Source of the DNA: Candidatus Parcubacteria bacterium
GTDB lineage: Bacteria > Patescibacteriota > Saccharimonadia > UBA4664 > JBIOIQ01
Direction of reading: 5' to 3'
Assembly: GCA_963718875.1 (NCBI GenBank)
Contig: OY970378.1
Location: 260,396-324,395 of the forward strand
Length of the DNA stretch: 64,000 bases
Positions 30,849 to 50,297 of the stretch are shown in pieces. How positions within the stretch are numbered: position 1 is the stretch's first letter; the number at the start of each line of letters is the position of its first letter. Made by a program: the position numbers and the translations under genes. Under the pieces are notes generated by a model. That model ran no database searches, was not told the DNA's origin, and saw only the letters and a program-made list of their open reading frames with translations.

Positions 30849-30871
30849 TGGTTCGGACGAACGGTTTATAC
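30849..30871 (+). repeat. Degenerate A-repeat remnant (GGTTCGGACGAACGGTTTATACC) at the distal end of the array
   Basis: Matches right half of A (TTCGAACGGTTTTAGCC). Confidence 0.4.
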
Positions 30872-31043
30872 CTTAAAATCTTCATTTCTAAGTTGTGATT
30901 GACGAAGAATGGATCGAAAAGTTCCCAGCGGAATTTCTTTCTTGCCGGCTGGAATGATAACAGTAAGATTGGCTTTGCGATATTTGGCATGACTACCTTT
31001 GGAAAACAAAAATAAAGCCCTTGGCTTCTAAGACTTTGATCAT
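30865..31043 (-). pseudogene. hicA: hicA-like toxin gene with frameshift in a T-run (N-term MIKVLEAKGFIFVFQR* in one frame, ...KGSHAKYRKANLTVIIPAGKKEIPLGTFRSILRQSQL in the next)
   Basis: Both halves resemble HicA (KGSH...GTxRSILKQ) but lie in different frames around TTTATTTTTGTTTTCC. Confidence 0.5.
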
Positions 31044-31062
31044 GTGTCGAGACGAATAAAGT

Positions 31063-31281
31063 TTAGGCACTCTGGAGGGTGAGAGTTTTAAAATGAGGAG
31101 CATCTATTACCGAAATATCTGGAGAAAAAGTATTTTCAAAATATAGCTCAAGGGCCTCTTTAAAGCTGTCTAAAGCTTGTTGCTCAGTATCGCCAAAGCT
31201 TGATACGTCAACATTAAGACACTGGGCAACGTAATATTTGCCATCTTTATAAACAACATTTTGTAATTCTAGTTGAGCCAT
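31063..31281 (-). CDS. hicB: HicB-like antitoxin (UPF0150/RNase-H-like fold)
   Basis: MAQLELQNVVYKDGKYYVAQCLNVDVSSFGDTEQQALDSFKEALELYFEN. Confidence 0.5.
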   Translation of the reverse strand: MAQLELQNVVYKDGKYYVAQCLNVDVSSFGDTEQQALDSFKEALELYFENTFSPDISVIDAPHFKTLTLQSA

Positions 31282-31318
31282 GTTGAACCCATTATACATG
31301 ATAATAATCATTGATATA

Positions 31319-31360
31319 GGTGGGCTGATTAACGATTTTCGAACGGTTTTAGCCTCGTAA
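31319..31360 (+). repeat. A repeat (pseudo-tRNA-Asp 3' end) copy
   Basis: GGTGGGCTGATTAACGATTTTCGAACGGTTTTAGCCTCGTAAAGC. Confidence 0.7.
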
Positions 31361-31418
31361 AGCAAAGCGCCCTCCATACTGGCAGGGCGCCGAGCGTGGA
31401 GGGCGATGGTGGCTGGGG

Positions 31419-31724
31419 CTACCGATGTAACTCAAAGTCCGTGCCTTTCAGAAGGCTTTCCGCCGCCGAGAAGCAATGGGGAGCATTCCTCACAGGTTGA
31501 CCCGCGAGAACACTCGCCAACGCCTGAGCCGTCATCTGCAGGGCTCCTTGCAAGCTGTGAAGAGGCTGTACCGGCATCACTTCGAACTTCTCGCTGAGGG
31601 GATTGTGGCATTGCCCTTGCTCTGACGCGTTGGGAGCGGGGCAGGTGAGCAGGTCTTCCTCGTCGACCGAGATGAGACCGTGGGTGGTGCACTCCCTGAC
31701 CGGCCAACACCTATCAGCGTCCAT
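31419..31724 (-). CDS. Cassette protein of the WPVREC-THGLISVDE paralog family (copy 1)
   Basis: N-terminus RCWPVRECTTHGLISVDEEDLLTCPAP matches 44849..45226 (RSWPVRECNTHGLISVDEQDQTTCPAP). Confidence 0.5.
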   Translation of the reverse strand: MDADRCWPVRECTTHGLISVDEEDLLTCPAPNASEQGQCHNPLSEKFEVMPVQPLHSLQGALQMTAQALASVLAGQPVRNAPHCFSAAESLLKGTDFELHR

Positions 31725-31726
31725 TA

Positions 31727-31968
31727 TCAGCAGCCCAGATTTGCACGGTTGATGCGTCTGAGGCTGCTACGAAGCGCTTCCTCAGTATAGACCTCGGGTC
31801 CGACGAGACGATCGTCATGGCGGAACTCGATGACGTAGTCTTCGTCACCCTCGTCGCGGTTGATGGCTCCGATCTCCTTTGCAAAGGCGATCACGGCATC
31901 TGGCTCTTCTGGGCCCTCAATGACTACGCAGGGGCAGTCGTATTGGGCTGCGTAACCTTCGTGCATGA
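31727..31968 (-). CDS. Small acidic Cys-containing protein upstream of and abutting 31419..31724
   Basis: Start MHEGYAAQYDCPCVV...; stop 3 bp before the next start. Confidence 0.35.
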
Positions 31969-32067
31969 TTCTCCCTTTTGAGGTTGAGGAGTACGGCTGA
32001 AGCAGTTTGGGATAATGAATATTAGCATAAATTTGATCCGAAGTCAATTAAAATTGAACGTAGCAAA

Positions 32068-32096
32068 CAAAAAGAGACCCTACAAGGTCTCTTTAA
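32068..32096. terminator. Module C hairpin (AAAAAGAGACCCTACAAGGTCTCTTT) abutting an A repeat
   Basis: Analogous hairpins at 33298, 40487, 42128, 43290, 45350, always followed by TAAGCATAAG..TAT then GGCGGGAGC. Confidence 0.55.
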
Positions 32097-32108
32097 GCAT
32101 AAGCATAT

Positions 32109-32137
32109 TGGCGGGAGCTGATTAATGATTTTCGAAC
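32109..32137 (+). repeat. A repeat copy (left half only)
   Basis: TGGCGGGAGCTGATTAATGATTTTCGAAC. Confidence 0.7.
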
Positions 32138-32140
32138 TCG

Positions 32141-33277
32141 CTAGAGCCGATCAGAATCAGAGCTTCTAGGGGTTGTGTCGGCCTTATCATTGAGGATACC
32201 AGATAGGATGTTTGTCATTCGGCTATTGGCTTCTTTTAATTGGACCTCTAGGCCTTTTCTTTGTTCTACTTCTTCGAGCACGATGGCTTGGCTTTGTTCT
32301 AATTCGATAGTCCTTGCCTTTAAGGTTTGTTCAGCGCTCCTGCGCTCTGACTCGGTAGCCGCTAAAATGAGAGATGTTGTATAAACCGTAAAAATAAAGA
32401 GATGCAAGAAAATTAAGTTTTGATCAGTCGATTGCCCTATCGAAAAAGGCCCCAATTTATTAACGGTTCCCCAAACCGCCGACATGGATATAAGCAATGT
32501 GGCCGTGACCACCCCGATTTGCTCAAACTTTAGGGCTACCCAGATGAGTAACGGAAAGATGATATAAGGAGCTTCAGTTAAACCGCTGCGTTGCGACTGA
32601 GAAAAAACTAATACGCTTGTGGCCAGAATTAGGGTCAGTAGCAAGCCAAATTGTCTTAATTGCTTGAATGAAAAATGGATTTGGTGGATGCCGCTGTAGA
32701 CCAGTATGAGTGGAGCAAAAATTAGAGCTCCCATGGCATCACCAACCCACCAAACAGCCCAATTTGCCGTAAAAGTCGACCAGGTTACAAGTTTGCCCAA
32801 GGCTAAACTTAGGGTGCCAATGGTGGCACCTACGAGGGGACTAATGAGGGCTGCAACTACAATAAAGACCAATACGTTTTGCAAACCGGATAGTTTTTGG
32901 CTTATCTTGGTCCGGCGTAATAGGTAGGCGCCGGTTAGCGCTTCGAGCGTGTTACCGATGCCAATACCTAATGCCACTGCCACTGGTTCGTGAGTCAAGA
33001 TATTAGCAACAAAGGCTCCCGCTAGGATACTAGGCCAATATTTAAAACCAAGCAAAAATAAGGCGGCAATGGCGATACCGGTGGGAGGCCAGACTGCCGT
33101 TATTTGTTTGGTAGTAAAGGCTAGTGATAAGCCCAATTTGGCTGAGATTACATAGATAAGCACCAACAAAACGGCTTTCATCAAATAGCGGGAATTTAAG
33201 TTGGGAATATGGCTTCTCAAATTACTTAACCGACTAGCCATTTTATACCTGTTAATTAAATAGTTTGCTAATATCAT
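32141..33277 (-). CDS. MASE1-type membrane sensor fragment, low-GC, truncated at an A repeat just where a PAS domain would begin
   Basis: About 8 TM then coiled coil ending ...TNILSGILNDKADTTPRSSDSDRL*; stop 3 bp from A copy. Confidence 0.45.
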   Translation of the reverse strand: MILANYLINRYKMASRLSNLRSHIPNLNSRYLMKAVLLVLIYVISAKLGLSLAFTTKQITAVWPPTGIAIAALFLLGFKYWPSILAGAFVANILTHEPVAVALGIGIGNTLEALTGAYLLRRTKISQKLSGLQNVLVFIVVAALISPLVGATIGTLSLALGKLVTWSTFTANWAVWWVGDAMGALIFAPLILVYSGIHQIHFSFKQLRQFGLLLTLILATSVLVFSQSQRSGLTEAPYIIFPLLIWVALKFEQIGVVTATLLISMSAVWGTVNKLGPFSIGQSTDQNLIFLHLFIFTVYTTSLILAATESERRSAEQTLKARTIELEQSQAIVLEEVEQRKGLEVQLKEANSRMTNILSGILNDKADTTPRSSDSDRL

Positions 33278-33400
33278 ACTATGCGGCTGTGTTCGACACC
33301 AAAAGAGGCTTCGTAAAGCCTCAGTAGTAGATAACCAGAGCATAAGTATATTTATAAAAAAACAATCTTCAATGTGGCTGCTCGTTTCATTTAACGCGAT

Positions 33401-33437
33401 CTTATTAACGATTTTCGAACGGTTTTAGCTTCATAAA
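33401..33437 (+). repeat. A repeat copy (right two-thirds)
   Basis: CTTATTAACGATTTTCGAACGGTTTTAGCTTCATAAA. Confidence 0.7.
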
Positions 33438-33506
33438 AAGCACTCGGCCACCCAGAGAGCAGCTTTGTGCAGATACTGAGTGGCCATTTTTATTGCAGCC
33501 TTGTAA

Positions 33507-34100
33507 CTAGGATGTCTGATCGAGGAACCTTATTATTGCCCGACGGTAAAACAACATCACAGTGACGATGCTTTGCGAGTGGTTGATTCCGGCCACACGA
33601 TGCACCTTTGCGCCTGCAAGCCGCATGGTGGAAAGCGGCACAAAGTCACGCCAAGGCTCCATGATAAGGGTTCGATTGAGCTGATGATCTGTTAGGAGCC
33701 GTTGGGATTGCTCACAGGCTACGGCTGACTCCTGGAATGCCTCGCTTGATCCTACAGACTTAGCAAATTTTGGTGGTGGGTCACTCATTAGTCGGAGGGC
33801 CCCACAGACGCTTACAACACCTACGAGCTGTGGGCGAGCAGCATAGGCATTAATGATGAGACTTGCACCAGCGCTGATGCCAATAAGGGCTACTGGATCG
33901 CCAGTTGCAAGTAATTCATCGATCACGGCCAGGAGCTTGGCTAATTTAGGCGAATACTTATTACCGTCGCGCCAGCCAACAGCCAAAGGGTAAAGCTGAA
34001 CATCCTTTGTGTTCCATACCTTTGTGAGCAAGGCAGGAAAGTTGAATTTGCCGTCATCGAGTCCAAATACAAGGACAATCCGAAGCTTTCGATTAGACAT
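33507..34100 (-). CDS. Alpha/beta-hydrolase-fold protein (GISAG nucleophile elbow)
   Basis: LIGISAGASLIINAYA. Confidence 0.45.
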   Translation of the reverse strand: MSNRKLRIVLVFGLDDGKFNFPALLTKVWNTKDVQLYPLAVGWRDGNKYSPKLAKLLAVIDELLATGDPVALIGISAGASLIINAYAARPQLVGVVSVCGALRLMSDPPPKFAKSVGSSEAFQESAVACEQSQRLLTDHQLNRTLIMEPWRDFVPLSTMRLAGAKVHRVAGINHSQSIVTVMLFYRRAIIRFLDQTS

Positions 34101-34126
34101 GAATGGATTATAACAAAAAAGCTTCA

Positions 34127-34148
34127 GAAGGGTTCGGCCTCATAAAGC
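34127..34148 (+). repeat. Partial A repeat (right tail GAAGGGTTCGGCCTCATAAAGC) followed by shared hairpin GAGCCGCCCAGCAGGCGGTCTTGCGCTGCTGAACGGCT
   Basis: Same tail plus hairpin at 37365-37420. Confidence 0.55.
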
Positions 34149-34252
34149 ACAAGAGCCGCCCAGCAGGCGGTCTTGCGCTGCTGAACGGCTGTAAAACTGA
34201 GGAACGATCGCTGGTGACTTGCGTGGATCTCCAACTCGGAGCTGGAGCCGTC

Positions 34253-34552
34253 TCAGCTGCCTCGACGGCCAGTCTCGATGTCCAAGCCAGCCTGCTCTCG
34301 GGCTCTTCTGACGTGACCCGAGTACGGCGGCACTTCCTCGACACTCGAGATAACCCCGGCTTCCAGCAGAACACTGGTTACCCAGCAGCCGTGGCAAACC
34401 TCCTTGCAGGCAAGATTATCGTTGTGGAGGCCGTGTTTCAGCCCACTGTGGGCCGTAGCCATGAGAACTCTCATGGCATGCTTGACAGAGGTGGGACTTG
34501 CGGTTTGCAGCATCTGCTCGAGTTCTTGTTGCCTGGTGACAGCGGTAATCAT
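34253..34552 (-). CDS. Hypothetical 99-aa cassette protein (RBS AAGGAG)
   Basis: GC-rich; ...HGLHNDNLACKEVCHGCW. Confidence 0.4.
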   Translation of the reverse strand: MITAVTRQQELEQMLQTASPTSVKHAMRVLMATAHSGLKHGLHNDNLACKEVCHGCWVTSVLLEAGVISSVEEVPPYSGHVRRAREQAGLDIETGRRGS

Positions 34553-34595
34553 GCTCGTACTCCTTTGCTAGGCGAACGGAACGAGTGGCAATATT

Positions 34596-34763
34596 TACGA
34601 CGGTGATGCAAAGAGCGCTTAGAGAAAGCTTGTCATTTCCGCGTACTCGAGAGCATGAACTTGGTGGGGGCAGGTTTCGCAGAGGGGCAACCCACAGGTT
34701 GTGGGTGAAGTGCCTTCGAACCGGCACTTCTTAACTGCAGGCTTCCCGCAGGTACAGCGTTTG
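34596..34763 (-). CDS. 55-aa Cys-rich Zn-ribbon protein (METNKRCTCGKPAVKKCRFEGTSPTTCGLPLCETCPHQVHALEYAEMTSFL)
   Basis: Translated by hand; RBS GAGGAG 6 nt before ATG; below ORF-track size cutoff. Confidence 0.4.
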
Positions 34764-34880
34764 TTTGTTTCCATAAGTCTCCTCGTGTGCTCGACGTGGT
34801 GAGTGAAGCTTGGTTTATTTATACTCCAGATAAGTCATTATTCAAGCACGAGCGTATTGGTAAAATCTGCTTGCCGATTA

Positions 34881-34920
34881 GCTAATTAACGATTTTCGAA
34901 CTTTGATTCTATGGCGGGCC
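34881..34920 (+). repeat. Rearranged A repeat (GCTAATTAACGATTTTCGAAC then TATGGCGGGCC) followed by module H
   Basis: Module H GGAGGAGCAGGTTAGAACTCATTTT also at 44700-44745. Confidence 0.5.
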
Positions 34921-34963
34921 GTTCCGTCAACTGACGGAGGAGCAGGTTAGAACTCATTTTCTG

Positions 34964-35527: not shown

Positions 35528-35680
35528 AATTAAAGTTTACCATGATACAAAAAAGCATAGTAAAGGCTTAATAATTGCTGATGGGTTGTAACTGCCTAAA
35601 AATTGTTAAGCCAGGAAGTCTTTGAACGCTACAGTCGCATAAGCGTCTTTTGTGCTACCTTATTAGCATGAGTGTATTAG

Positions 35681-37201: not shown

Positions 37202-37212
37202 TATTTTGCAAC

Positions 37213-37365
37213 CACGGGCAGTTGGTAGGACGCCTATGAGGTAGCGGAGATGTATTTGAGGATGACCAGGATGGTGACTTCGAAAGCTTCGAAGTACTTC
37301 TCCAGGGCTAACTGCATTTCAAGCCGCAGCTTCTCCAGCAGTCCCGGCGTCAACTCGAAGCCCCA
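37213..37365 (+). repeat. Orphan duplicate of the 3' 150 bp of cassette gene 26903..27277, about 90% identical
   Basis: Alignable base by base with 26880-27030. Confidence 0.6.
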
Positions 37366-37418
37366 CCTCATAAAAGCACAAGAGCCGCCCAGCAGGCGGT
37401 CTTGCGCTGCTGAACGGC

Positions 37419-37922
37419 TTATAGATCAGATGGGCAGCCGTGGACGGCCAAGCTCTTGTTCTTGTAGCGGGGGTCGTCGGTGACTTCGATCGCTTCTCCG
37501 AAGAGCTCCACCGGGAACACATATGCCTCCGCTTCGGCCCTAAGGGCTACTTCATCTTCGGGAGGCCCAACCCATTCGGCTTCGACCATCTGCAGGCCCC
37601 AGAGAGGACCATAAAAAATATCCCATTCTAGGGTGGGTGGCCCTGGGATGGAGACTCTCAAGCGATTCTTTTGGATCATGTTCGAGGTCGAGAGGACAAG
37701 TTGGTTGAAGACCCACTCGGGAATTTCCACTTCCCATTCGGAGCGGCTGATGGTCCCGTCACCTTTGACAGTCAGGAAGAACTTTCCGCCCTTGGTTCGA
37801 ATGCGAAGCTCTCCCGGCTCCATGATGATGTAGCCCTGAACAATCTCCTCGCTTCGTAGGCCCGATAGTGTTGCCGGCTTACGGAGAACCCACTTGCGTT
37901 CAATTTCGATCTGGTCAGACAC
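37419..37922 (-). CDS. CYTH-domain protein (class IV adenylyl cyclase / triphosphatase fold)
   Basis: VSDQIEIERKWVL...EIVQGYI...LTVKGDG..SRSEWEVEI; GTG start with RBS AAGGAG. Confidence 0.55.
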   Translation of the reverse strand: MSDQIEIERKWVLRKPATLSGLRSEEIVQGYIIMEPGELRIRTKGGKFFLTVKGDGTISRSEWEVEIPEWVFNQLVLSTSNMIQKNRLRVSIPGPPTLEWDIFYGPLWGLQMVEAEWVGPPEDEVALRAEAEAYVFPVELFGEAIEVTDDPRYKNKSLAVHGCPSDL

Positions 37923-37990
37923 GACTTCTCCTTGATAGGGGGAGTTCTTATATTGTGCTATTAGGGAGCGGAAAAGCAAGCATGAGCAAT

Positions 37991-38347
37991 TTATTTGCTC
38001 AATAAGCCTACTCGACCTAAATCGCTTTCGGGTAAGCCAAGTACCACAAAGACTTCGTGGATAGTTGGGATCACACTACACTGATCGTCGCGTACGGGTG
38101 GGTAGAGCCAGCCTGAATTCCAGCAGCTTGGTTTCTGATCGCCTGTGGGGGTACAGACGGCTACCAGGTATTCAGCGGTGCTCTCAGTTTTTCTACATAT
38201 TCCTGATCGGTTAAGATAGGGGGCCCTGTGTATGGATAGAGACGGTAACCCGTACGACCTGTTCCTGCTACGGCTGGTCTGTGGATGAGGCGGTAAATAC
38301 CACGTAAAAATCCAAATATCATGTCGGCCTCTCTGTAGGGGTGACAT
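37991..38347 (-). CDS. Hypothetical GC-rich cassette protein
   Basis: ORF only. Confidence 0.3.
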   Translation of the reverse strand: MSPLQRGRHDIWIFTWYLPPHPQTSRSRNRSYGLPSLSIHRAPYLNRSGICRKTESTAEYLVAVCTPTGDQKPSCWNSGWLYPPVRDDQCSVIPTIHEVFVVLGLPESDLGRVGLLSK

Positions 38348-38437: not shown

Positions 38438-38497
38438 TTTGCGGGTGATTCTTGCTTTTGCGGGGTGTTTGTGACGGTCTGACCGTCGTGTTGCGAA

Positions 38498-38935
38498 CTA
38501 CGTCGGGTCGATTCTGGCCTTTGCGTATCTACGGCCGTACTCCTCGGCGCCACTCAGGACTTCGGCGATGTGGGGGTCTTTATCCGACAGCCTTTCCAGA
38601 TGGAGCTTCACGGTGTCTCGTGCGTTGGTCTGATTGACGAACCATTCCACGCACCTCACCCGCGCCTTGTCGCTGTCGGCGGTGATGATATCGCCCTCAC
38701 GAGGTGGGATGGGGAAGCCGTTGACTGGGTAGGGGTCATCCGTCAGACGAGGATCCTGCCCGATAAGCGGCAACAACCACAAGCATGGGTACCTGCTGCC
38801 GCCCTCCACGATCCATTCCACCTGCGCCACGATGTAGGTGAACTCGGCGATGTGGAAGATGTCACCCCTAGAGGGAACTGCATCCATCTCACGGGTACCG
38901 GCACTATATCCGGTTGTGGTATCAACTCTCATCGG
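38498..38935 (-). CDS. Hypothetical cassette protein (start MRVDTTTGY), overlapping operon with 38922..39260
   Basis: GC-rich; 14-bp overlap with upstream ORF. Confidence 0.35.
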   Translation of the reverse strand, partial: PMRVDTTTGYSAGTREMDAVPSRGDIFHIAEFTYIVAQVEWIVEGGSRYPCLWLLPLIGQDPRLTDDPYPVNGFPIPPREGDIITADSDKARVRCVEWFVNQTNARDTVKLHLERLSDKDPHIAEVLSGAEEYGRRYAKARIDPT

Positions 38936-39260
38936 AGGCTCCTGTCTCGGCTTTCTTCTGCCATGCAGAGAGGGCGCAAGCGAGAAGGTAGTCTGCAAGG
39001 ACGGCAGCCATTGGGGTGCTCGTTTGAGGAATTTCCACGGGTACTCCGGCTTTGTTGTCTGCTTCGACTAACTCACGGATGAGATCCCACCGCTCGTCGT
39101 CGGTCAAAAAACGAAGAGCCAGAATTGCAGGTCCGTTGTCGGGATCGGGGTGACTGTGGCCACGGGCTTTGATCTCTTGGGCTTTGGCCATCAAGGCTTC
39201 GAGGTGTTGTCCCATTATATTCAAACCTCTGTCTCCACCGGATGAGAGCGCACCGGTCAA
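38922..39260 (-). CDS. Hypothetical cassette protein
   Basis: GC-rich. Confidence 0.35.
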   Translation of the reverse strand: MTGALSSGGDRGLNIMGQHLEALMAKAQEIKARGHSHPDPDNGPAILALRFLTDDERWDLIRELVEADNKAGVPVEIPQTSTPMAAVLADYLLACALSAWQKKAETGASDES

Positions 39261-39299: not shown

Positions 39300-39420
39300 G
39301 CTTAATGCAAGCACGAGCAATTTAGTTGTTCAATAATATAACCGAGAAAGTATTTACAAAGCAAGAAAATGCAAGCAGGGAAGTTTACGTGTCCTAATTC
39401 AATGGCAGCTTCAGCGAGCT
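39300..39420. promoter_or_regulatory. Module B copy upstream of parB-like gene
   Basis: CAAGCACGAGCAATTTAGTTGTTCAATAATATAACCGAGAAAGTATTTACAAAGC. Confidence 0.5.
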
Positions 39421-39652: not shown

Positions 39653-40390
39653 ATGACTGGACTTCGCGTAGTAAAGGATGACGCGCAGGTCAAGCCTGGT
39701 ACTGAGTTCTTTGAGCTGCCACTGGACCTATTGGTCATTGGCGATGACTTCAGGCTAGACGAGGATCTTGAGAGTCTGCAAGCGTTGGCTGAATCAATTG
39801 CGGAACTGGGAGTGTTACAACCGTTACTGGTGCGGGCGAAGGGGGAGGTTTGGGAAGTGGTGGCTGGTCGTCGTCGTCTGGCGGCATCCCGCATGGCCAA
39901 CCTGGAAACCGTGCCGTGTATTGTGGTCAATTCCACTGCAGATCGACCGCTTGATGCTACTTTGGCGGAGAACTTGCATCGCCGCAACTTGTCTCCGATT
40001 GAAGAAGCTCTGGCGTATGCTCGCTTAAGAGATGGAGACGGATTGAACCAGAGACAGATTGCGGATCGCGTGCGCCGCTCCCAGTCACATGTGTCAATGC
40101 ACCTGCGTCTTTTGGATCTATCCGCTGAGGTACAAACCGCGGTCCATCAAGGCAAGCTTTCTTACGTTACGGCCCTTAGGGGACGTAATCGGCCCGGTGG
40201 GCGGGAAGGGGGAGCGGACATCAAGCCGCTTTACGGTGATGAAGGAGCCCTGGCTTCTCATTGGCGTCGCCGTCACGATAGACTGATGACGGCTCTCACG
40301 GTTCTGCTCAGGGCACATCCCGCGAACGTTGCGGAATATCGCCAAATGATTGAGCGGGTAAGAAAGCTGGACGCAAAGCCGCTAGCCTAG
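39653..40390 (+). CDS. ParB/Srx-fold N-terminal-domain protein with HTH (ParB-like nuclease/DNA-binding protein), stand-alone
   Basis: LQPLLVRAKGEVWEVVAGRRRLAASRMANLETVPCIVV...QRQIADRVRRSQSHVSMHLRLL; RBS GGAGGAGG; no parA nearby. Confidence 0.55.
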   Translation: MTGLRVVKDDAQVKPGTEFFELPLDLLVIGDDFRLDEDLESLQALAESIAELGVLQPLLVRAKGEVWEVVAGRRRLAASRMANLETVPCIVVNSTADRPLDATLAENLHRRNLSPIEEALAYARLRDGDGLNQRQIADRVRRSQSHVSMHLRLLDLSAEVQTAVHQGKLSYVTALRGRNRPGGREGGADIKPLYGDEGALASHWRRRHDRLMTALTVLLRAHPANVAEYRQMIERVRKLDAKPLA

Positions 40391-40516
40391 GCGGTATCTA
40401 TGGGTTACGGGGCGGGAAGACCATCTGGTTTTCCCGCTACCGGGCCCTTTTTTAGTTTGCCATGAAGTTATTAATCTATTTCAAAAAGCCCTCACATAAG
40501 GGTGAGGCATTTGCAT

Positions 40517-40562
40517 TGGCGGGAGCTGATTAACGATTTTCGAACGGTTTTAAACTCATAAA
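40517..40562 (+). repeat. A repeat copy (full length)
   Basis: TGGCGGGAGCTGATTAACGATTTTCGAACGGTTTTAAACTCATAAA. Confidence 0.75.
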
Positions 40563-41195: not shown

Positions 41196-41284
41196 AGCGA
41201 CTCCAGTATGGTCGAGGGATAACTTATTATATCATAAATGTGATTTTAGAACGAAAGTAGCGATGATTACTCGGTTTAATAACG

Positions 41285-41337
41285 AAAAAGGCCCACGGGG
41301 TTGGACCGAAATGGTCTCTTCCGTGGGCTGTTGCCCA
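41285..41337. repeat. Module D hairpin/terminator, copy 2
   Basis: Matches 19199-19250. Confidence 0.65.
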
Positions 41338-42027
41338 TTATGAGGAGGGCGGGATCTCTTTGTATAGCTCCCAACGCTGGTGCCGCTTGCCAGACAACGT
41401 GAGTCCGGATCGGCCGAGAGCTTCACGAATTGCTTCGAAGCGGTCGAGAGCTTTCTGAACAACTCGCTCAGTTCGACCGTACCCAGCAAGCATCAGCCTG
41501 CAAACGGTGAACTCATCAAGTTCCGTCAGTGCTTCGACCGTGGTGATCCCAGCGTCGAGGATCAGTTGGAGCGCGACCTGTGCGTCATGCGATCCGGCCA
41601 GACTAAGACCCTGCAGTGCGTGAGCGCGGGGATGAGGGGAAATCAGCAGCGGTGCTTCCATGCGATTGAGGTTTTCGAAGTAACTGTTGGCCCATGTTAT
41701 CGCTCGACGTCCAATCTCCTCCAGGAAGTCGTCAATAAGGTGGGTCATTGCTCCGCATGAATTGCAGTATCCGGTCCTTCTCTGGCTCCGCGGGTTAACG
41801 GCGATGTCGGACTGCTCGACTGGCGAGCCGGGGCTGGCGGGCTCGAAGTAGGTGCCTTTGAGTTGTCCCACGATGTATGCACCGAGGGTGACACGACTTC
41901 CTCTAGATCCGCTGGGGCATCCAGCATGGCAGGTGACCTGCGGGGATGCGTAGACAAGTCCTTCGCCGTCGGGCTGGTCGCTTTGACGGGAGAAGTGAAC
42001 GTGAAGGAGTCTCTGTCGACGACTCAT
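41338..42027 (-). CDS. Hypothetical cassette protein with C-terminal helix-hairpin-helix-like segment
   Basis: GC-rich; RBS GGAAAGGTGG; LILDAGITTVEALTE...LAGYGRTERVVQKALD. Confidence 0.35.
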   Translation of the reverse strand: MSRRQRLLHVHFSRQSDQPDGEGLVYASPQVTCHAGCPSGSRGSRVTLGAYIVGQLKGTYFEPASPGSPVEQSDIAVNPRSQRRTGYCNSCGAMTHLIDDFLEEIGRRAITWANSYFENLNRMEAPLLISPHPRAHALQGLSLAGSHDAQVALQLILDAGITTVEALTELDEFTVCRLMLAGYGRTERVVQKALDRFEAIREALGRSGLTLSGKRHQRWELYKEIPPSS

Positions 42028-42175
42028 GATGTTACCACCTTTCCAAGTGGTTGGGGGAACGCTTCAAGTATCCAAGAAGCTTTATTAACTATAACATACT
42101 TCAGCAATAAAAACAAGTTATCACAAAAAGAAACAAAAAGAGACTCCGAAAAGTCTCATTTAAGCATAAGTACTA

Positions 42176-42208
42176 TGGCGGGAGCTTATTAACGATTTTC
42201 GAACGGTT
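42176..42208 (+). repeat. A repeat copy fused directly to module B
   Basis: TGGCGGGAGCTTATTAACGATTTTCGAACGGTT then ...AACCGAGATAAGTTTGACA. Confidence 0.75.
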
Positions 42209-42214
42209 ACGGCT

Positions 42215-42300
42215 CAAGCTTAACCGAGATAAGTTTGACATAACGTAAGAATTATGATAAGATGAAGCGATTCTGACGAAAGTCAGCGCTCCTCTCCTGC
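42215..42300. promoter_or_regulatory. Module B promoter TTGACA(42235)-17 bp-TAAGAT(42258) plus leader hairpin CTGACGAAAGTCAG
   Basis: About 85% identical to 27380-27450. Confidence 0.55.
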
Positions 42301-42339
42301 GAGTTGGAATTGGCATTTAGGTAAGTAGGCAAAAAGTAG

Positions 42340-43023: not shown

Positions 43024-43065
43024 CCGTTCCTCTGAACCGCGCCGCTGGTCGTTCCCAACCTGCAC

Positions 43066-43338
43066 AGCCTCGCCGTTCACCTCCATGGTGGGCGGCGGGG
43101 CCGATTCCCAAGTCAATTTATGTAAGTTGGTTTAGGAATCGAAAAAAGCTGGGCTCGACCCTTCGATAAACTCAGGGTAAACCGGATACGGGCTTGACTA
43201 CGTCAACCCTGGCTGCCCGATCGGTCACAGTGCTCCCTCGGGCTAGTCGAACCGGCAGAAGATCGCCGATTCGAATATTCGCTAGCGCTCATCAAGAAAA
43301 GCCGACAACCACAAGGGTCATCGGCTTTTCTTGGCGGG
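43066..43338 (+). repeat. Composite block: module E hairpin, tail (i), about 190-bp segment carrying an inverted partial tRNA-Asp copy (GAACCGGCAGAAGATCGCCGATTCGAA) and hairpin GAAAAGCCGACAACCACAAGGGTCATCGGCTTTTC, ending in TTGGCGGG. Duplicate of 49074-49324
   Basis: Alignable throughout with the block abutting the real tRNA-Asp; 24-bp indel at 43160-43183. Confidence 0.7.
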
Positions 43339-43377
43339 AGCTTATTAACGATTTTCGAACGGTTTTAGCCTCATAAA
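43332..43377 (+). repeat. A repeat copy (full length), occupying the position the tRNA-Asp 3' end occupies in the 49.3-kb copy of the block
   Basis: TGGCGGGAGCTTATTAACGATTTTCGAACGGTTTTAGCCTCATAAA. Confidence 0.8.
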
Positions 43378-43427
43378 TGACGAAAGCTCCCAAACAGGCG
43401 AACTTTCGTTGGCTGCTTGAGAGCTGA

Positions 43428-44848: not shown

Positions 44849-45226
44849 CTAGTTCGGATTAAAGATGCGCTTGATGAGCCCGACTGCCCAGAAGGGTGGG
44901 CTTAGCAGAAGACTCAGCCAGATCAATCCCTCCCACCAGACCATCTTTACATCTTCTTCGTAATCGTAAACCAGCTCGGTGAGTACGCCCATGCCGACGA
45001 GCCAGCCGCAGATGAAGAGCAGAAAGGCGAAGATGGCGATTCCATCTCCGGTGCTCAGGTTCTGCTTTCCCGATGGGGAAAAGACTTCGAACCTCTTGCT
45101 CAGTTTCATTCCGCACATGCCGCTGCCTGAGCTGGATGGGGCAGGACATGTGGTTTGGTCTTGTTCGTCGACGGATATGAGTCCGTGGGTGTTGCACTCG
45201 CGAACCGGCCAGCTACGTACTTGCAT
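44849..45226 (-). CDS. WPVREC-THGLISVDE paralog family (copy 2) with C-terminal TM extension
   Basis: Shared N-terminal 35 aa with 31419..31724; promoter TTGACT-16 bp-TATTAT about 60 bp upstream. Confidence 0.5.
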   Translation of the reverse strand: MQVRSWPVRECNTHGLISVDEQDQTTCPAPSSSGSGMCGMKLSKRFEVFSPSGKQNLSTGDGIAIFAFLLFICGWLVGMGVLTELVYDYEEDVKMVWWEGLIWLSLLLSPPFWAVGLIKRIFNPN

Positions 45227-45377
45227 TTGGATTCTCCCGTAGTAGGGCAGAGCGCTTAGATGCGCTTCGCTTGATGACTTGCAGAGATTACGTATGATAA
45301 TAGCATTTTTTTATAAAAAGTCAATCGAAATTAAATAAACAAACAAAAAAGAGGCTTCGTAAAGCCTCAATAATTGC

Positions 45378-45406
45378 ATGGCGGGAGCTTATTGATGATT
45401 TTCGAA
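45378..45406 (+). repeat. A repeat copy (left half)
   Basis: TGGCGGGAGCTTATTGATGATTTTCGAAC. Confidence 0.7.
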
Positions 45407-45497
45407 CTACAGCTGCATTATAAAATGACGATGCCCCCAAAGATGCCTTGCGGCGTCCGAGGGGGCAGTTCGTCAGTCGAGCGAAGGAGCGGCCTTA

Positions 45498-45794
45498 TCA
45501 AGAGGCAATGACGGTGTAGTGGATGCGATGCCAGAGGCCTGTTTTGTAGGGCAGGATGCCCGCATCGTTCAGGTAGAGGCGCTCGGGGGAGCCGGGGTGA
45601 CCAACTTCTCTGACCATGACGAACGGCGCTTCTTCGGTTTCTACGCCGCTGACGATTTCGAACTTCATGCCGCCGTGGAATCGCGTGTCATGTCGTCGGA
45701 TGATGGTTCCTGGTGTGAGGAGGTAGAGATCGTCGGGCCCGAGAGCACCGGGGTGTTGCGGTCGGACGTCGGTAAGATCGGGGTCGGCTCTCAT
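45498..45794 (-). CDS. Hypothetical 98-aa cassette protein
   Basis: GC-rich. Confidence 0.35.
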   Translation of the reverse strand: MRADPDLTDVRPQHPGALGPDDLYLLTPGTIIRRHDTRFHGGMKFEIVSGVETEEAPFVMVREVGHPGSPERLYLNDAGILPYKTGLWHRIHYTVIAS

Positions 45795-45928
45795 CGTTGA
45801 CTTTTATTCGGCTGACGGATGTACTGATGCATTTTCGCACCATTAATGTTGATTATAGCATAAGCATGATAATAAGTCAATAATCTTGATTACATAACAA
45901 AAATAGGCAAGACCTTAATAAGTATTAT

Positions 45929-45980
45929 TGCGGGAGCCTGTTTGCCGACAGGCAGGCTAATTAACGATTTTCGAACCGTT
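45929..45980 (+). repeat. A repeat copy interrupted by a 20-bp hairpin insert (GCGGGAGC-CTGTTTGCCGACAGGCAGG-CTAATTAACGATTTTCGAACCGTT)
   Basis: Read directly. Confidence 0.65.
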
Positions 45981-46041
45981 TACTCGGTTTAATAACGGAA
46001 AGAGCCCCCAGGCAGAGGGATTTCCGTATTGCTTGAGGGCT

Positions 46042-46278
46042 TCAATTGGAAGGTCGCTTGATGCGCCGTACGAATTCATCGACATCGTCTTGATGTATAC
46101 GTGTCGCATGGTGGTTGCCGTCATCGATCTTGAATCGCAAGCCCCTCCCTAGGGCTGGCCTACCCGCTATGCCTTCGATGAAATAGCTGACATACTGCGT
46201 CTGCCGACCAACTAGATCTGATACCACCATCAGTGGCACATAGCCATCGGCGTCCGGTGAGTTATCGAAGATGGGCAT
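46042..46278 (-). CDS. Hypothetical 78-aa cassette protein
   Basis: ORF only. Confidence 0.3.
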   Translation of the reverse strand: MPIFDNSPDADGYVPLMVVSDLVGRQTQYVSYFIEGIAGRPALGRGLRFKIDDGNHHATRIHQDDVDEFVRRIKRPSN

Positions 46279-46290
46279 CTTTGGCCAGAT

Positions 46291-46605
46291 TCAATTAGTT
46301 TTCTCGGCTGCAGTCTCGATGTTGACTTTGGCTTCCATGACAGCGACTTGCCCCATGTACTTGGGGATCATTGCGATGGCAGCCTTTCCGGCACGTGCTT
46401 TGGCAGCCTCTTCCGTCTCAGCCGAGAGACTGAAGTCAAACCTGACCTCACAGAAGACGTTTGGGTCTGGTTCGATGAAGATTTCCAAACCCCAGAAGTC
46501 GTAATCATGGAGCAGGGTTTGACGGATTTCGGCCTCGTGTTGAGGAAGCAGGGTTGTAGCCGGACCTACCAAGGACAGGGTGACGTGGGCTTTCCAGTCT
46601 TGCAT
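46291..46605 (-). CDS. Hypothetical 104-aa cassette protein (start MQDWKAHV, RBS AAGGAG)
   Basis: GC-rich. Confidence 0.35.
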   Translation of the reverse strand: MQDWKAHVTLSLVGPATTLLPQHEAEIRQTLLHDYDFWGLEIFIEPDPNVFCEVRFDFSLSAETEEAAKARAGKAAIAMIPKYMGQVAVMEAKVNIETAAEKTN

Positions 46606-46639
46606 TGCGACTCCTTTTGTCGGGGGTTCCACCGGATGA

Positions 46640-46762
46640 AAGCGCACCGGTCCACGCATTCAGAACGAATTGATAACTATGCTACTAAAATACGCTTATT
46701 GCAACCATAAGCGGCAAAGCTTATCGAGAAAGTATTGACAAAGCATAAGTATTGTGCTAGTA
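46640..46762. promoter_or_regulatory. Module B copy with promoter TTGACA(46734)-17 bp-TAGTAT(46757)
   Basis: Shares CAACGCATTCAGAACGAATTGA(C/T)AACTAT with 39252-39280. Confidence 0.55.
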
Positions 46763-46886
46763 TTGTTGGATTCAATCGTTAAGGTTGAAATGTTCCTTAC
46801 AACTTCCTTTCTTGGTGTTTGTCGACTTGGTCACTAACAGCTTTAGCTGCTAGATCGACAGACATCTCAACGAAAGGAAAACTGTC

Positions 46887-47495
46887 ATGACACTGGCCGT
46901 CCAGATCTTCATCCACTCCAACCCCTTTGTCGGGATCATTTCCGACGTGGCATTCAACCGCATCGTTTCACGAGCGGTTTACGCAAGGGCCGAGGACATC
47001 CAGAAGCGCTACATGGCGGGCGAATACCCCCGCGATTCCTTCAGCTTCACCATACTCGACCCCACAGCTCCGGCCTCAACACCGAGCGAGGACGCCATCA
47101 TGGTGCTTGCCCTCATCGGGCCAGAGGGAGCAGACTTCGCTCCCAACGGCCTTGCCAAGGCAATCGAACACCGGGACTCGGGTACGGAGTGTGGTGTGCT
47201 GGTGTACACCCAGAAGCACCGGCTGCCCAGTGGAAGCTTCCGCTACGGGTTCTCCGTCTGCCTCGACGGCACCTACGTCGGCGGCAGTGGCGAAACCGAA
47301 CTTCAGGACCGCTACCAGTGCACCCTTCTCGCCGCGGATTTCAACCTCCGCATCGACACGACCATCAAGGAGTGGGAAGAGGTTCACGGCCCCGGTCGCT
47401 GGTTCAGCGAAGACAACAAGCCGGGCAGACGCATCACAGACGCGCTTGTATCGGTCATGTCAAGCCACCCCATGAGCCGTCCTGGCACGTCATGA
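46887..47495 (+). CDS. Hypothetical 202-aa cassette protein
   Basis: GC-rich; antisense ORFs rejected. Confidence 0.4.
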   Translation: MTLAVQIFIHSNPFVGIISDVAFNRIVSRAVYARAEDIQKRYMAGEYPRDSFSFTILDPTAPASTPSEDAIMVLALIGPEGADFAPNGLAKAIEHRDSGTECGVLVYTQKHRLPSGSFRYGFSVCLDGTYVGGSGETELQDRYQCTLLAADFNLRIDTTIKEWEEVHGPGRWFSEDNKPGRRITDALVSVMSSHPMSRPGTS

Positions 47496-47507
47496 CGTAA
47501 GCAGCAC

Positions 47508-47630
47508 AGCCTCGCCGTTCACCCTAGGGTGGGCGGCGGGGCCGATTCCCAAGCCCGTTAACGCAAGTTAATTGGCTTAGTAGTCGAAAGACTGATTTAC
47601 ATTCCCACAACCGCTCTGAAAGGAGCAACC
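47508..47630 (+). repeat. Module E hairpin plus promoter/leader module (ii) (...TTAACGCAAGTTAATTGGCTTAGTAGTCGAAAGACTGATTTACATTCCCACAACCGCTCTGAAAGGAG) running into the next start codon
   Basis: Near-identical copy at 48467-48590; related copy at 59640-59736. Confidence 0.65.
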
Positions 47631-47996
47631 ATGCTGAATTCTGTCGCCCGAGCCTCCCAGGCACTGGCAATCTGGCGCATCGCCGAAACCGGAGTCACCA
47701 ATGAGACGGACAACCGGGCCGATCTGAAAGGAGCGGTAGTACAAGCCCATCAGCAGTTCTTGCAGGCGGCCTACGACGTCGCCTTTGAACTGGTCCCCTT
47801 GCTTCTGAAGCACGGGGAAGTAGTCGCCAAGACTACAGTTCGCTACTCGGCTACTCCGGCCAACGGCGGCTTCGTACTGCAGGCGATGTCCGAAGACGAT
47901 CCCGGCATGCCGCTGAATCCCAACTCGCACGTCGAGCGGATACTCCAGCTCATGGTCGACCTGACGGAGCTGCTCGAGATCCTAGGGGTAGAGTAA
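47631..47996 (+). CDS. Hypothetical 121-aa cassette protein
   Basis: Stop overlaps start of next ORF (ATGA-type coupling). Confidence 0.4.
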   Translation: MLNSVARASQALAIWRIAETGVTNETDNRADLKGAVVQAHQQFLQAAYDVAFELVPLLLKHGEVVAKTTVRYSATPANGGFVLQAMSEDDPGMPLNPNSHVERILQLMVDLTELLEILGVE

Positions 47997-48454
47997 TGGA
48001 GTGCCCCAATTGTGGAGAGTCTGGACAGCCCGGTCATCACTGGTTGGCTGGGCAAGGATACGTCTGCTTCAACAAAGATGGGGGAGACGACGTTCCTCCT
48101 CCTGATATCCAGCTCTCGAAAGGAGCGGTAATGCCAGACACCGATGAGGTCCGTGTTTCGGATCTCCACCAGAGCTGTACTTTCAACGTCATCTACCATC
48201 CCACGAGCAACAGTCCGCTCTGTAACAAGCCCGCTACGTCGTTGGTGATGGTGACCGACGCTCCGCGCGTAAGCCAGCCGCCCAAGTGGCGGTGCGACGA
48301 GCACGAGGGCATGGTCAGCAGAGACGAGCGAGGAGAAGTTGTCACAGCCATGCCGCGTGAGCTGGCGGATTCGTTGACAGATCGCAGGCTTGGCAAGCCT
48401 GGCAACCCCATCCGGGCTTGGCTCGACATGCCGCCCCACGATGAGCCGTACTGA
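47996..48454 (+). CDS. Zn-ribbon (CPNCGESG...) cassette protein
   Basis: N-terminal CxxC plus downstream Cys/His. Confidence 0.4.
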   Translation: MECPNCGESGQPGHHWLAGQGYVCFNKDGGDDVPPPDIQLSKGAVMPDTDEVRVSDLHQSCTFNVIYHPTSNSPLCNKPATSLVMVTDAPRVSQPPKWRCDEHEGMVSRDERGEVVTAMPRELADSLTDRRLGKPGNPIRAWLDMPPHDEPY

Positions 48455-48466
48455 TCGCTTGTAGCA

Positions 48467-48590
48467 AGCCTCGCCGTTCACCTTCTGGGTGGGCGGCGGG
48501 GCCGATTCCCAAGTCTGTTAACGCAAGTTAATTGGCTTAGTAGTCGAAAGACTGATTTACATTCCCACAACCGCTCTCGAAAGGAGCATC
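48467..48590 (+). repeat. Module E plus promoter/leader module (ii), copy
   Basis: As 47508-47630. Confidence 0.65.
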
Positions 48591-49070
48591 ATGCGAACTC
48601 TGTCAAGTTTGGAGTACAGCGAAGCCAGGCTGCTTCTCGAGTACATCGTCGATCAAGCTGGAGATGCCAAGGTTGCAATCTGCGTAGTGGACGCAACCGG
48701 CAAGCTTTTGGCTGCGGCTTCAATCAACGGCGCCGCCTCTCACTACATGACCTTCGCCCTGGCCAAAGCCATCACCGGTCTTCACGAAGAGGATGACACG
48801 GCTGGTTTCCGCCACGATCAGCCTGACCACAGCAGTTGGGTCCCGAAGGAAGAAGGCCAAGGCTGGTCCGAGGGGGAACTAATTCTTGCCGCGCAGCTCA
48901 GCCCAGGCTTCTGCGGCTGGGCAGGGGGCTCAGTCGTAATAGATCCTTCCGAAGAGCTTCACATCTGTGGCTCCATCGGTGTCAGCGGTTTGATGGAGTT
49001 GGAGGATCAAGAGTTGGCGGACAAGCTGCCTGCCCGATTGGTAGCTTTGATACTTACATCGCTATCGCAG
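48591..49070 (+). CDS. GlcG/HbpS-like DUF336 protein (putative heme/cofactor-binding); listed ORF continues to 49232 by reading through module E, so the true 3' end is uncertain
   Basis: A..DAKVAICVVDATGKLLAAASINGAA...FALAKAITG pattern typical of DUF336. Confidence 0.5.
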
Positions 49071-49073
49071 CAT

Positions 49074-49324
49074 AGCCTCGCCGTTCACCTCCGGGTGGGC
49101 GGCGGGGCCGATTCCCAAGTTAGTTATAAAGTTAACTGGTTTAGGAATCGAAAAAAGCTGGGCTCGACTGGATACGGGCTTGACTACGTCAACCCTGGCT
49201 GCCCGATCGGTCGCAGTGTTCCCTCGGGCTAGTCGAACCGGCAGAAGATCGCCGGTTCGAACATTCGCTAGCGCTCATTAAGAAAAGCCGACAACCACAA
49301 GGGTCATCGGCTTTTCTTGGCGGG
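49074..49324 (+). repeat. tRNA-proximal copy of the composite block (E hairpin, tail (i), 190-bp segment with inverted partial tRNA copy, hairpin) ending in the tRNA-Asp 3' end
   Basis: Duplicate of 43066-43338. Confidence 0.7.
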
Positions 49325-49394
49325 CTCGACCGGATTCGAACCGGCGATCTTCTCCGTGACAGGGAGACATGTTGGGCCTCTACACCACGAGCCC
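49318..49394 (-). tRNA. tRNA-Asp (anticodon GTC), GC-rich
   Basis: Cloverleaf read by hand: acceptor GGGCTCG, anticodon arm TCTCC-CTGTCAC-GGAGA, T-arm GCCGG-TTCGAAT-CCGGT, CCA encoded. Confidence 0.8.
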
Positions 49395-49665
49395 TTGTCG
49401 CTTGTAATCTCGAGCGCGCTTCGGCGGCGACCTTTCCGCCTCGCCTCGCCGTACGTTTCGAGTACGGCTTGTTACGATGCTCAAGGTCTTCTTGAATCGC
49501 ATCTCTATATTCTAAGCTTCCGTTGTACAAAATGCCGCGGACGTGCCAGCAAATTAACTGCTCAATCTTAGCAGAGTCGGCAGGGTAGTTCAACTTAGCC
49601 TAGAGTGGTAATGTTTGTTAGTGGTATAATAAAACACAATAATTGTAGAAAGAGCGTAATACACA

Positions 49666-50287: not shown

Positions 50288-50297
50288 GAATAAATCC

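Follow-up and report, generated by a model that had tools for sequence, protein, structure and literature searches.

In the tycheposon islands of Prochlorococcus, successive integrations at one tRNA gene push older elements into the island, partial tRNA genes and integrase fragments remain behind, and active elements are much rarer than the islands themselves (10.1101/2020.12.28.424599). The streptococcal cis-mobilizable elements (CIMEs) of the ICESt1/ICESt3 family, found in Streptococcus thermophilus, are decayed elements that have kept their att sites, accrete with incoming elements and rely on the integrases of the latter (PMC5704250). Here we describe a genomic island in a 64-kb stretch of DNA, hereafter the window (positions 260,396 to 324,395 of contig OY970378.1, assembly GCA_963718875.1), from the approximately 1.19-Mb chromosome of a soil bacterium that belongs to the Saccharimonadia within the candidate phyla radiation (CPR). 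The island spans about 30 kb (approximately 19.2–49.3 kb of the window), adjoins a tRNA-Asp gene and is divided by about 20 junctions into units of 0.47 to 4.5 kb. The junctions are marked by intact or decayed copies of a conserved sequence, the A site, and no recombinase gene was found in the window. We propose, with a probability of roughly 55%, that the island at the 3′ end of tRNA-Asp was formed by serial site-specific integration carried out by a recombinase acting in trans. The recombinase is probably of the tyrosine type.

Like the tycheposon islands, the locus lies in a streamlined genome next to a tRNA gene and contains scattered remnants of attachment sites, and most tycheposon islands also lack an active element. 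However, its repeats are not partial tRNA genes but a conserved 24–31-nt non-tRNA arm joined to 7 nt shared with the tRNA, its units are much smaller (0.47–4.5 kb), it contains neither an integrase nor an integrase fragment, and its host belongs to the CPR and not to the cyanobacteria. CIMEs resemble the array in having att sites without integration genes and in their tandem position at the 3′ end of a target gene: the units of the array have att-like flanks and lack integration and transfer genes, and CIMEs depend on a helper. CIMEs, in contrast, are decayed integrative and conjugative elements (ICEs) or integrative and mobilizable elements (IMEs) of several kilobases, usually one or two per site, whereas the array has about 20 cassette-size junctions and no visible helper.

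Integron arrays, and clusters of attC sites lacking integron integrases (CALINs), are similar in that small, mostly single-gene units each end in a recombination site, the cargo includes toxin–antitoxin genes, and an adjacent integrase is dispensable. The recombinase of integrons acts in trans on units that are unable to encode it, an arrangement to which we liken the array. Unlike integrons, the array has no attC structure, integron integrase IntI, attI site or cassette promoter Pc, it is anchored at the 3′ end of a tRNA gene, and its cassettes lie in both orientations with promoters and terminators of their own. Integrative mobile elements exploiting Xer (IMEX) and Xer–dif modules are likewise integrated DNA without a recombinase of their own that stacks in tandem, and IMEX use the recombinases of the host; here, however, no dif-like site was recognized by eye, and the locus lies away from the replication terminus. 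For Saccharibacteria and Patescibacteria, a literature search returned no account of arrays of this kind. A tRNA island without an integrase is in itself a known state; what is new is the dense, cassette-sized and lineage-conserved array of A sites.

The A site has the form TGGCGGG followed directly by AGCTnATTAACGATTTTCGAAC and frequently then by GGTTTTAGCCTCATAAA. Its 17-nt core occurs nine times, compared with 0.16 occurrences expected in shuffled sequences, and is exact in seven of the nine copies, the flanks of which are wholly different. The looser core A[CT][GA]ATTTTC[GA]AA has ten copies, all on the plus strand between 21765 and 45964, and none elsewhere in the window on either strand. 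A profile constructed from the copies gave no further significant match in the window. The complement of A sites comprises these ten co-oriented conserved copies and about ten decayed remnants. The conserved copies are the following:

21749–21780, plus strand, diverged A site ATAGGTGGGTTAACTAACAATTTTCAAATGA, which overlaps the hemH stop codon and is the leftmost copy with a recognizable core
31318–31361, plus strand, A site with the first 7 nt diverged (AGGTGGG)
32109–32142, plus strand, A site with intact TGGCGGGAGCT; a minus-strand terminator hairpin (32071–32094) lies just beyond it
33394–33437, plus strand, A site with a diverged 5′ part
34860–34906, plus strand, A site variant with an insert of about 19 nt between TATTGG and AGCTAATTAAC
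40517–40562, plus strand, A site with intact TGGCGGGAGCT; a terminator hairpin (40490–40507) lies ahead of it
42176–42209, plus strand, A site with intact TGGCGGGAGCT; a terminator hairpin (42140–42157) lies ahead of it
43332–43377, plus strand, A site with intact TGGCGGGAGCT; a copy of the M module described below lies directly ahead, which gives an M-TGGCGGG-A junction
45379–45420, plus strand, A site TGGCGGGAGCTTATTGATGATTTTCGAAC; a terminator hairpin (45351–45368) lies ahead of it
45932–45995, plus strand, A site variant with an 18-nt insert, TTGCGGGAGC-CTGTTTGCCGACAGGCAG-GCTAATTAACGATTTTCGAAC

The remnants, at 19.19, 20.99, 26.27, 26.81, 30.85, 34.13, 37.37, 38.40 and 41.25 kb, consist of the right half of the A site only, or only of the hairpin module that usually comes after it. 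They include:

19182–19258, plus strand, A-adjacent hairpin module without the core, the leftmost trace of the island
26273–26286, plus strand, A remnant TTTAGCCCCATAAA, 16 nt from the hemC start codon
26804–26829, plus strand, A remnant from which about 17–19 nt of the conserved core are deleted in comparison with the intact site in soil contig L083
30847–30878, plus strand, partial A site, right half only
34120–34190, plus strand, A remnant (right half) and a 47-nt hairpin module, which recurs exactly at 37373–37419 and follows an A site in the related genome L051
37366–37419, plus strand, A remnant CCTCATAAA and hairpin module, fused to a shortened copy of the cassette gene at 26903–27277
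41238–41343, plus strand, degenerate A site beginning GATTTTAGAAC and a hairpin module 88% identical to 19190–19258

An earlier note on this DNA, made from the sequence alone, had placed the start of the array at 30849, which corresponds to the partial A site at 30847–30878. The A site at 21749–21780 and the hairpin modules carry its real extent to 19.18 kb. The two copies of the 47-nt hairpin module (34144–34190 and 37373–37419) form a perfect direct repeat, and the second is joined to a truncated paralogue (37216–37365) that is 97% identical to the cassette gene at 26903–27277. This fusion is evidence of deletion and rearrangement within the island. The G+C content of the units varies from 0.37 to 0.56, compared with 0.45–0.47 in the flanks of the island. 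Short-read contigs from the sample of the window match segments of the window and break at the island repeats, which counts against mis-assembly. The A site was also considered as a tRNA-like minihelix or a small RNA, and both were rejected, as it has no Rfam match, no consensus structure and no significant folding energy; a closing stem GGGAGCU/AGCUCCC is present in two or three copies only.

The window contains three tRNA genes, all on the minus strand: tRNA-Asp(GTC) (49318–49394, identified using ARAGORN and Rfam), tRNA-Thr (50298–50373) and tRNA-Gly (54188–54261). The island abuts the 3′ terminus of tRNA-Asp, whose terminal CCCGCCA reads as TGGCGGG on the plus strand (49318–49324). We infer that this heptamer is the attB core. 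The A site opens with the same heptamer, and its identity with the tRNA-Asp terminus is exact in the five copies that start with TGGCGGGAGCT. Only these 7 nt of the A site are shared with the tRNA; degenerate 13–17-nt copies of the tRNA end are present in the M modules. All A copies have the same orientation while the cargo genes are on both strands, and therefore the orientation follows the tRNA and not transcription. Read on the tRNA-sense strand, intact A sites end in AGCTCCCGCCA, and a terminator-like hairpin follows at once after CCCGCCA; the A site and the hairpin together mimic the real tRNA-plus-terminator arrangement.

The approximately 280 nt located directly downstream of the tRNA (49040–49324) are duplicated at 43040–43338 with about 96% identity. 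The duplicate ends exactly at TGGCGGG, after which the A arm takes the place of the tRNA. This is what two tandem inserts with related ends would leave, and the M-TGGCGGG-A junction at 43332 is an attP-like arrangement between tandem units. The M module is about 140–180 nt long and opens with an 18–19-nt copy of the tRNA-Asp 3′ end, degenerate in the window; at its other end are a terminator hairpin and TGGCGGG. Its copies in the window are:

43148–43331, plus strand, M module copy 1: degenerate tRNA-Asp 3′ end (GCTGGGCTCGACC), about 150 nt with an inverted T-arm fragment, terminator hairpin and TGGCGGG end
49157–49317, plus strand, M module copy 2, which abuts the real tRNA-Asp

In copy 2, the 19 nt at 49245–49263 repeat tRNA positions 49335–49353, a part of the T arm, exactly and in inverted orientation.

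The 17-nt core was used to scan 185,579 species genomes, which gave mostly single chance matches; profile scoring then kept the genomes L036 (Candidatus Saccharimonadia), L033 (an uncultured bacterium, 466-kb contig) and L051 (labelled Parcubacteria), all of which are metagenome-assembled genomes of the CPR. In each of them the A site is located 0.45–3.4 kb downstream of the genome's own tRNA-Asp in the same orientation, and L051 contains two copies. A tblastx comparison of the window with the three loci matched only the tRNA, the repeats and the adjoining hairpin modules, with no cargo or protein in common. The M module occurs twice in L051 and is also present in L036 and L033, as are true 14–19-nt copies of the tRNA-Asp 3′ end in all three. 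Together with the inverted T-arm copy in M, these tRNA-end copies show that tRNA-Asp is a hotspot of integration in the lineage. In the interval from the A site to the tRNA, L033 contains an approximately 0.45-kb stretch with small open reading frames (ORFs) and L036 a unit of about 0.7 kb, and both inserts occupy the slot expected for the newest insert. A scan of metagenomes for the A site returned one contig, the soil contig L083, which contains homologues of two window cassettes, 92% identical to 26815–27291 and 93% identical to 38497–38620. The two cassettes are adjacent in L083 and 11 kb apart in the window, and the homology to the cassette at 26.9 kb ends at the A site. The same site thus carries different cargo in L036, L033 and L051, and the cassettes are reordered in L083. 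Two scans of viral contigs for the A site gave AT-rich chance matches only, and an integrase-carrying "master" element was found in none of the genome, metagenome and viral scans for the A site. The proposal of the earlier note that the array grew by site-specific insertion is supported by the shared terminal 7 nt, the co-orientation of the sites, the same geometry in four genomes and a G+C content that varies by unit.

The 102-aa protein of the flank and a 124-aa cassette protein have two database matches each, one of those of the 102-aa protein being itself. Homologues that are extracytoplasmic function (ECF) sigma factors bear the names Saccharimonadales, Saccharibacteria and Saccharimonas; the contigs of the closest ones (L084 and L085) end just before the island, and more distant relatives are not syntenic.

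The B repeat is present on the plus strand at 28000–28075, 43066–43145, 47507–47586, 48467–48546 and 49073–49150. It is a 15-bp hairpin, AGCCTCGCCGTTCACC...GGTGGGCGGCGGGGC, with G-U pairs that work on the plus strand only, followed by a second hairpin. The B repeat closes each plus-strand gene in the tRNA-proximal part of the island and precedes the M module in two places; it could be a terminator, a stabilizer or a part of a long attP arm. At the tRNA-Gly gene, the 3′ end of the tRNA (54182–54206) recurs as a 25-nt copy at 54016–54040, 166 nt downstream of the gene. The DNA between the two tRNA-Gly ends begins with GTGTCTGGCGCCACCTCC, similar to the M module beside tRNA-Asp in L036 and L033 (GTGGCTTGCGCCACCTCC), a sign that miniature inserts at tRNA T-loops may form a family.

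All non-overlapping ORFs of 60 aa or more from the whole window were compared with Pfam, and none matched the Phage_integrase, Resolvase, rve/DDE or HUH families. A six-frame Pfam search of stop-to-stop frames of at least 45 aa from 30.7–49.4 kb added only a HicA toxin and no recombinase, and the comparison of the island proteins with PHROGs gave ParB-like families only. Six-frame phmmer and jackhmmer searches of the whole window with XerD, Cre, lambda Int, gamma-delta resolvase and Hin yielded nothing at E≤10. The jackhmmer queries were iterated into profiles with integrases from unrelated loci. As a positive control, the same queries were run on these unrelated loci, where they picked up five tyrosine recombinases and two of the serine type. 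The profile search is a supporting control and not the main test. It also found no recombinase in L033, L036, L051 and L083–L085. Despite the presence of about 20 junctions, six-frame translation revealed no integrase pseudogene or fragment. The island ends approximately 19 kb and 14.6 kb inside the window edges, and the flanks are without a recombinase, which excludes an integrase adjacent to the array. The far side of the tRNA (49666–50373) contains a proline-rich 102-aa membrane ORF (49666–49974, plus strand) and tRNA-Thr, and no recombinase.

The absence of a recombinase from the window had been stated in the earlier note, and it was borne out by the Pfam search of the ORFs, the six-frame Pfam search of the array and the controlled six-frame profile search. 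The description of 49.4–50.3 kb as holding only small ORFs and tRNA-Thr also agrees with the single 102-aa ORF and the tRNA found there. The earlier note had reckoned with an integrase immediately beyond the window, next to the array; with both ends of the island inside the window and none in the flanks, this possibility is largely moot. It had further suggested that the integrase lies outside the window, acts in trans or is replaced by an unconventional enzyme. The first two suggestions stand, since action in trans or from elsewhere in the genome is the best fit to units of 0.47–0.8 kb, which have no room for an integrase, and to the lack of pseudogenes or other integrase remnants, whereas the nomination of the ParB-like protein as the enzyme does not.

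Based on the arrangement of the repeats, a mechanism of island growth can be outlined. Small circular DNAs would integrate repeatedly at the 3′ end of the tRNA gene of the Saccharimonadia chromosome. The attP of an incoming circle would consist of a P′ arm, the 7-bp core TGGCGGG and a P arm. The P′ arm would be a terminator hairpin at minimum and a B and M module of about 270 nt at most, and the P arm would be the conserved A sequence AGCTnATTAACGATTTTCGAAC(GGTTTTAGCCTCATAAA). Strand exchange presumably takes place within the 7 bp common to the last 7 nt of tRNA-Asp. A shared core of 7 bp fits the overlap region of a tyrosine recombinase, and the identity with the tRNA looks like such a region. 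The exchange would restore the tRNA with a new terminator behind it and place the core and the A arm on the distal side of the insert, beside the DNA that was formerly downstream of the tRNA. Repetition of the process would shift older units leftwards and give rise to the series of co-oriented A junctions, which would later decay through small deletions. The recombinase acting in trans may be encoded elsewhere in the chromosome or on a helper element.

Several observations weigh against serial integration in trans. No recombinase linked to the A site was found anywhere, so that the central actor is unobserved, and the analysis revealed neither an excised circle nor an empty site nor a population variant. 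The decay of the A sites is not monotonic with the distance from the tRNA: at 32109 the site is intact, and at 45950 it carries an insert. Growth with the newest unit next to the tRNA is therefore an incomplete description, and some units must have entered at internal A sites or been rearranged. The 7 bp in common with the tRNA are shorter than most tRNA att repeats. Furthermore, the comparison set is small, with four extra loci that amount to 24 kb in total.

It is possible, although we consider it unlikely, that the island is a fossil, in which the junctions were left by larger autonomous elements with their own integrases, such as prophages, ICEs, IMEs or tycheposon-like elements, that are now immobile. 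No enzyme acting in trans would then be needed; the integrases and most of the cargo could have been deleted later, or composite blocks acquired whole. The visible decay of the A sites, with core deletions at 26.8, 34.1, 37.4 and 41.3 kb, and the truncated gene copies are consistent with such a history. Tycheposon islands likewise contain scattered partial tRNA genes and greatly outnumber their elements (10.1101/2020.12.28.424599), and the decay of elements to CIMEs is documented (PMC5704250). However, tycheposon islands keep fragmented integrases, whereas the six frames of about 20 junctions contain not a single integrase fragment. The small units in the newest, tRNA-proximal slot of L033 (about 0.45 kb) and L036 (about 0.7 kb), and the exact preservation of the 17-nt core in seven of nine copies between entirely different flanks, also argue against fossil accretion. 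Capture dependent on Xer, in which XerC/D-type recombinases of the host mobilize the units through an A site that imitates the sequence they bind, would account for the lack of a dedicated recombinase gene in a minimal genome. Acinetobacter plasmids contain arrays of recombinase-less modules bounded by Xer sites, and IMEX form tandem arrays at dif. We nevertheless regard Xer-dependent capture as improbable: inspection by eye of the A consensus revealed no dif-like imperfect palindrome of the 11-6-11 type, the A site is tied to the tRNA 3′ end in four genomes, and the monotonic rise of the cumulative GC skew through the window places the locus away from the replication terminus.

The A site might instead have no role in recombination and be a module for protein binding or for transcript ends, such as a silencer or ParB/KorB operator or a tRNA-like 3′ signal, that was carried along in duplicated intergenic DNA through homologous recombination. 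Conservation of its core is strong, with no evident symmetry within it, hairpins and terminators invariably lie beside the site, and other intergenic modules of the island (the B hairpin and a promoter-like 33-mer) are repeated as well. There is nonetheless little chance that this is the case, since the copies are co-oriented whatever the strand of the genes, their fold z-scores range from −1.4 to +0.8 with no consensus pairs in RNAalifold and no match in Rfam, no parS-like site is present, and such a role would explain neither the exact identity with the tRNA terminus nor the adjacency to the tRNA in four genomes. Many ORFs of the array have no detectable family, so that a novel enzyme encoded within it is conceivable, the ParB-like protein or one of the orphan ORFs being the candidates to catalyze insertion. 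We consider this very improbable. The ParB protein is a textbook Spo0J/ParB present in a single copy, no protein is common to the window and L036, L051 or L033 in the tblastx comparison, and the three weak relatives of the orphan ORF at 41338–42027 among 1.8 billion representative sequences are not the pattern of a lineage-wide enzyme. Cassette-sized units of 0.5–3 kb, sites at gene ends, toxin–antitoxin cargo and the lack of a nearby integrase might recall a chromosomal integron or CALIN, an interpretation that is hardly credible here. The A site lacks the R″-L″/L′-R′ imperfect palindrome, the GTTRRRY core (the inverse-core box was judged by eye) and a supported fold. The genes occupy both strands, have promoters and terminators of their own and are not promoterless cassettes read from Pc, the lack of IntI in the window fits the CALIN form only, and the anchor is a tRNA gene. 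The attC reading of the A site was ruled out on its structure and on the orientation of the genes.

Going beyond serial integration in trans, we speculate that the Saccharimonadia possess a tRNA-anchored, integron-like capture system, although this more specific idea is doubtful. In such a system, a recombinase encoded far from the island would add self-contained mini-cassettes at the 3′-terminal 7 nt of tRNA-Asp. The recombinase possibly belongs to a non-canonical family or is a co-opted housekeeping enzyme. The enzyme would recognize the conserved 24-nt arm of each cassette, and the cassettes would bring their own promoter and terminator. The cargo may range from a 0.47-kb toxin–antitoxin pair to a 4.5-kb haem operon. 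Members of the CPR, including the Saccharimonadia, depend on hosts and have genomes close to 1 Mb in size, and little is understood of the ways in which they acquire genes. The island of about 30 kb, a stack of foreign cassettes at one tRNA gene, makes up about 2.5% of the chromosome. Should a recombinase in trans capture the units singly, the island would be a gene-capture device parallel in function to integrons, with a tRNA attachment site as its base. The capture system would then provide minimal genomes with a dedicated and still active route to metabolic genes, and the conserved A site could serve as a probe for such arrays and for the recombinase in metagenomes. If, on the other hand, the island has formed by fossil accretion only, it is an ordinary though unusually dense case of a known process.

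Among the genes of the island are the following:

21758–26257, minus strand, haem operon (ferrochelatase, UROD, ChdC-like protein, HemD and HemC; Pfam)
30832–31377, minus strand, HicA toxin (30832–30990; Pfam) and probable HicB-like antitoxin (31063–31377)
39653–40390, plus strand, ParB/Spo0J-family protein (PF02195, ParB_N; PF17762, HTH_ParB; PF08535, KorB) with a GxRR motif
41338–42027, minus strand, orphan 229-aa ORF, labelled a helix-hairpin-helix protein in the earlier note; the label is unconfirmed

The haem operon lies between an A site, to its left, and an A remnant, to its right, and therefore looks like cargo of the array. To judge by this position, it was probably acquired horizontally. 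To our knowledge, a haem biosynthesis pathway is unexpected in the Saccharimonadia. The pair of HicA and the HicB-like protein is a complete unit of 0.47 kb with the lowest G+C content in the island (0.37).

The gene at 39653–40390 had been described as a stand-alone protein of the ParB/Srx nuclease fold and as a candidate for the mobilizing enzyme. Its ParB_N, HTH_ParB and KorB domains instead make it a canonical ParB/Spo0J protein. It scores 122.6 bits against TIGR00180 (cutoff 58.45) and matches Thermus Spo0J (PDB 1vz0) with E=2.7e-26, with the arginine-rich CTP-binding motif (AGrRR) aligned. The protein comprises an N-terminal CTP-binding domain with a GxxRxxA motif and a helix-turn-helix DNA-binding domain. 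ParB was ruled out as the recombinase, because it is a canonical ParB of the partition type, which matches the CTP-dependent DNA clamps Spo0J/ParB/Noc, and not a nuclease; moreover, it has one copy in the window, and a tblastx search of the window against the other A-bearing loci found nothing similar in them. There is no ParA partner among the island ORFs and no match to the canonical parS near parB at up to three mismatches. The gene is best read as cargo or as the leftover of a plasmid-like element.

The orphan ORF at 41338–42027 has no relative in Pfam, NCBIfam or the PDB, and a search of 1.8 billion representative sequences returned three weak matches besides itself. Its single-sequence AlphaFold2 model, with a predicted local distance difference test (pLDDT) score of 37.7, is unusable. 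The ORF is not similar to the Lsr2-like protein with an α-C-terminal domain (α-CTD) encoded in L051. The latter (4856–5782, minus strand) is a 308-aa protein in the tRNA-Asp island of that genome, with an Lsr2 dimerization domain, sigma-70 region 4 and a domain similar to the α-CTD of RNA polymerase. It is possibly a regulator of the xenogeneic-silencer type.

Promoter-like and terminator-like sites are located inside the units. A promoter-like module of 33–45 nt, AATGCAAGCATGAGCAATTTAGTTGTTCA, is present on the plus strand at 21554–21600, 27339–27381, 37971–38012 and 39301–39343, upstream of four unrelated minus-strand genes of the island. A second shared module of the promoter or 5′ untranslated region, TTGACA...GATAAAATGAAGCnATTCTGACGAAAGTCAGC, is found at 27377–27449 and 42221–42293 ahead of different plus-strand ORFs. 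Three pairs of ORFs (31419–31724 and 44849–45226; 38922–39260 and 46291–46659; 21034–21519 and 26335–26583) are alike in about 20–40 N- or C-terminal residues and the adjoining non-coding DNA and in nothing else; WPVRECxTHGLISVDE is an example of a shared N-terminal motif. Similarity confined to the ends suggests a modular exchange of cassette ends.

In L085, which represents the nearest relative for which a longer contig exists, the stretch downstream of the sigma/anti-sigma pair (3494–9382) is packed with PIN/RHH and PIN/MazE toxin–antitoxin pairs and is a second cassette-like cluster in the lineage. Outside the island, the stretch at 10700–12900 of the window has a G+C content of 0.52–0.54, four or five ORFs without a Pfam match, and neither A nor B repeats; this stretch is possibly a foreign insert distinct from the island.

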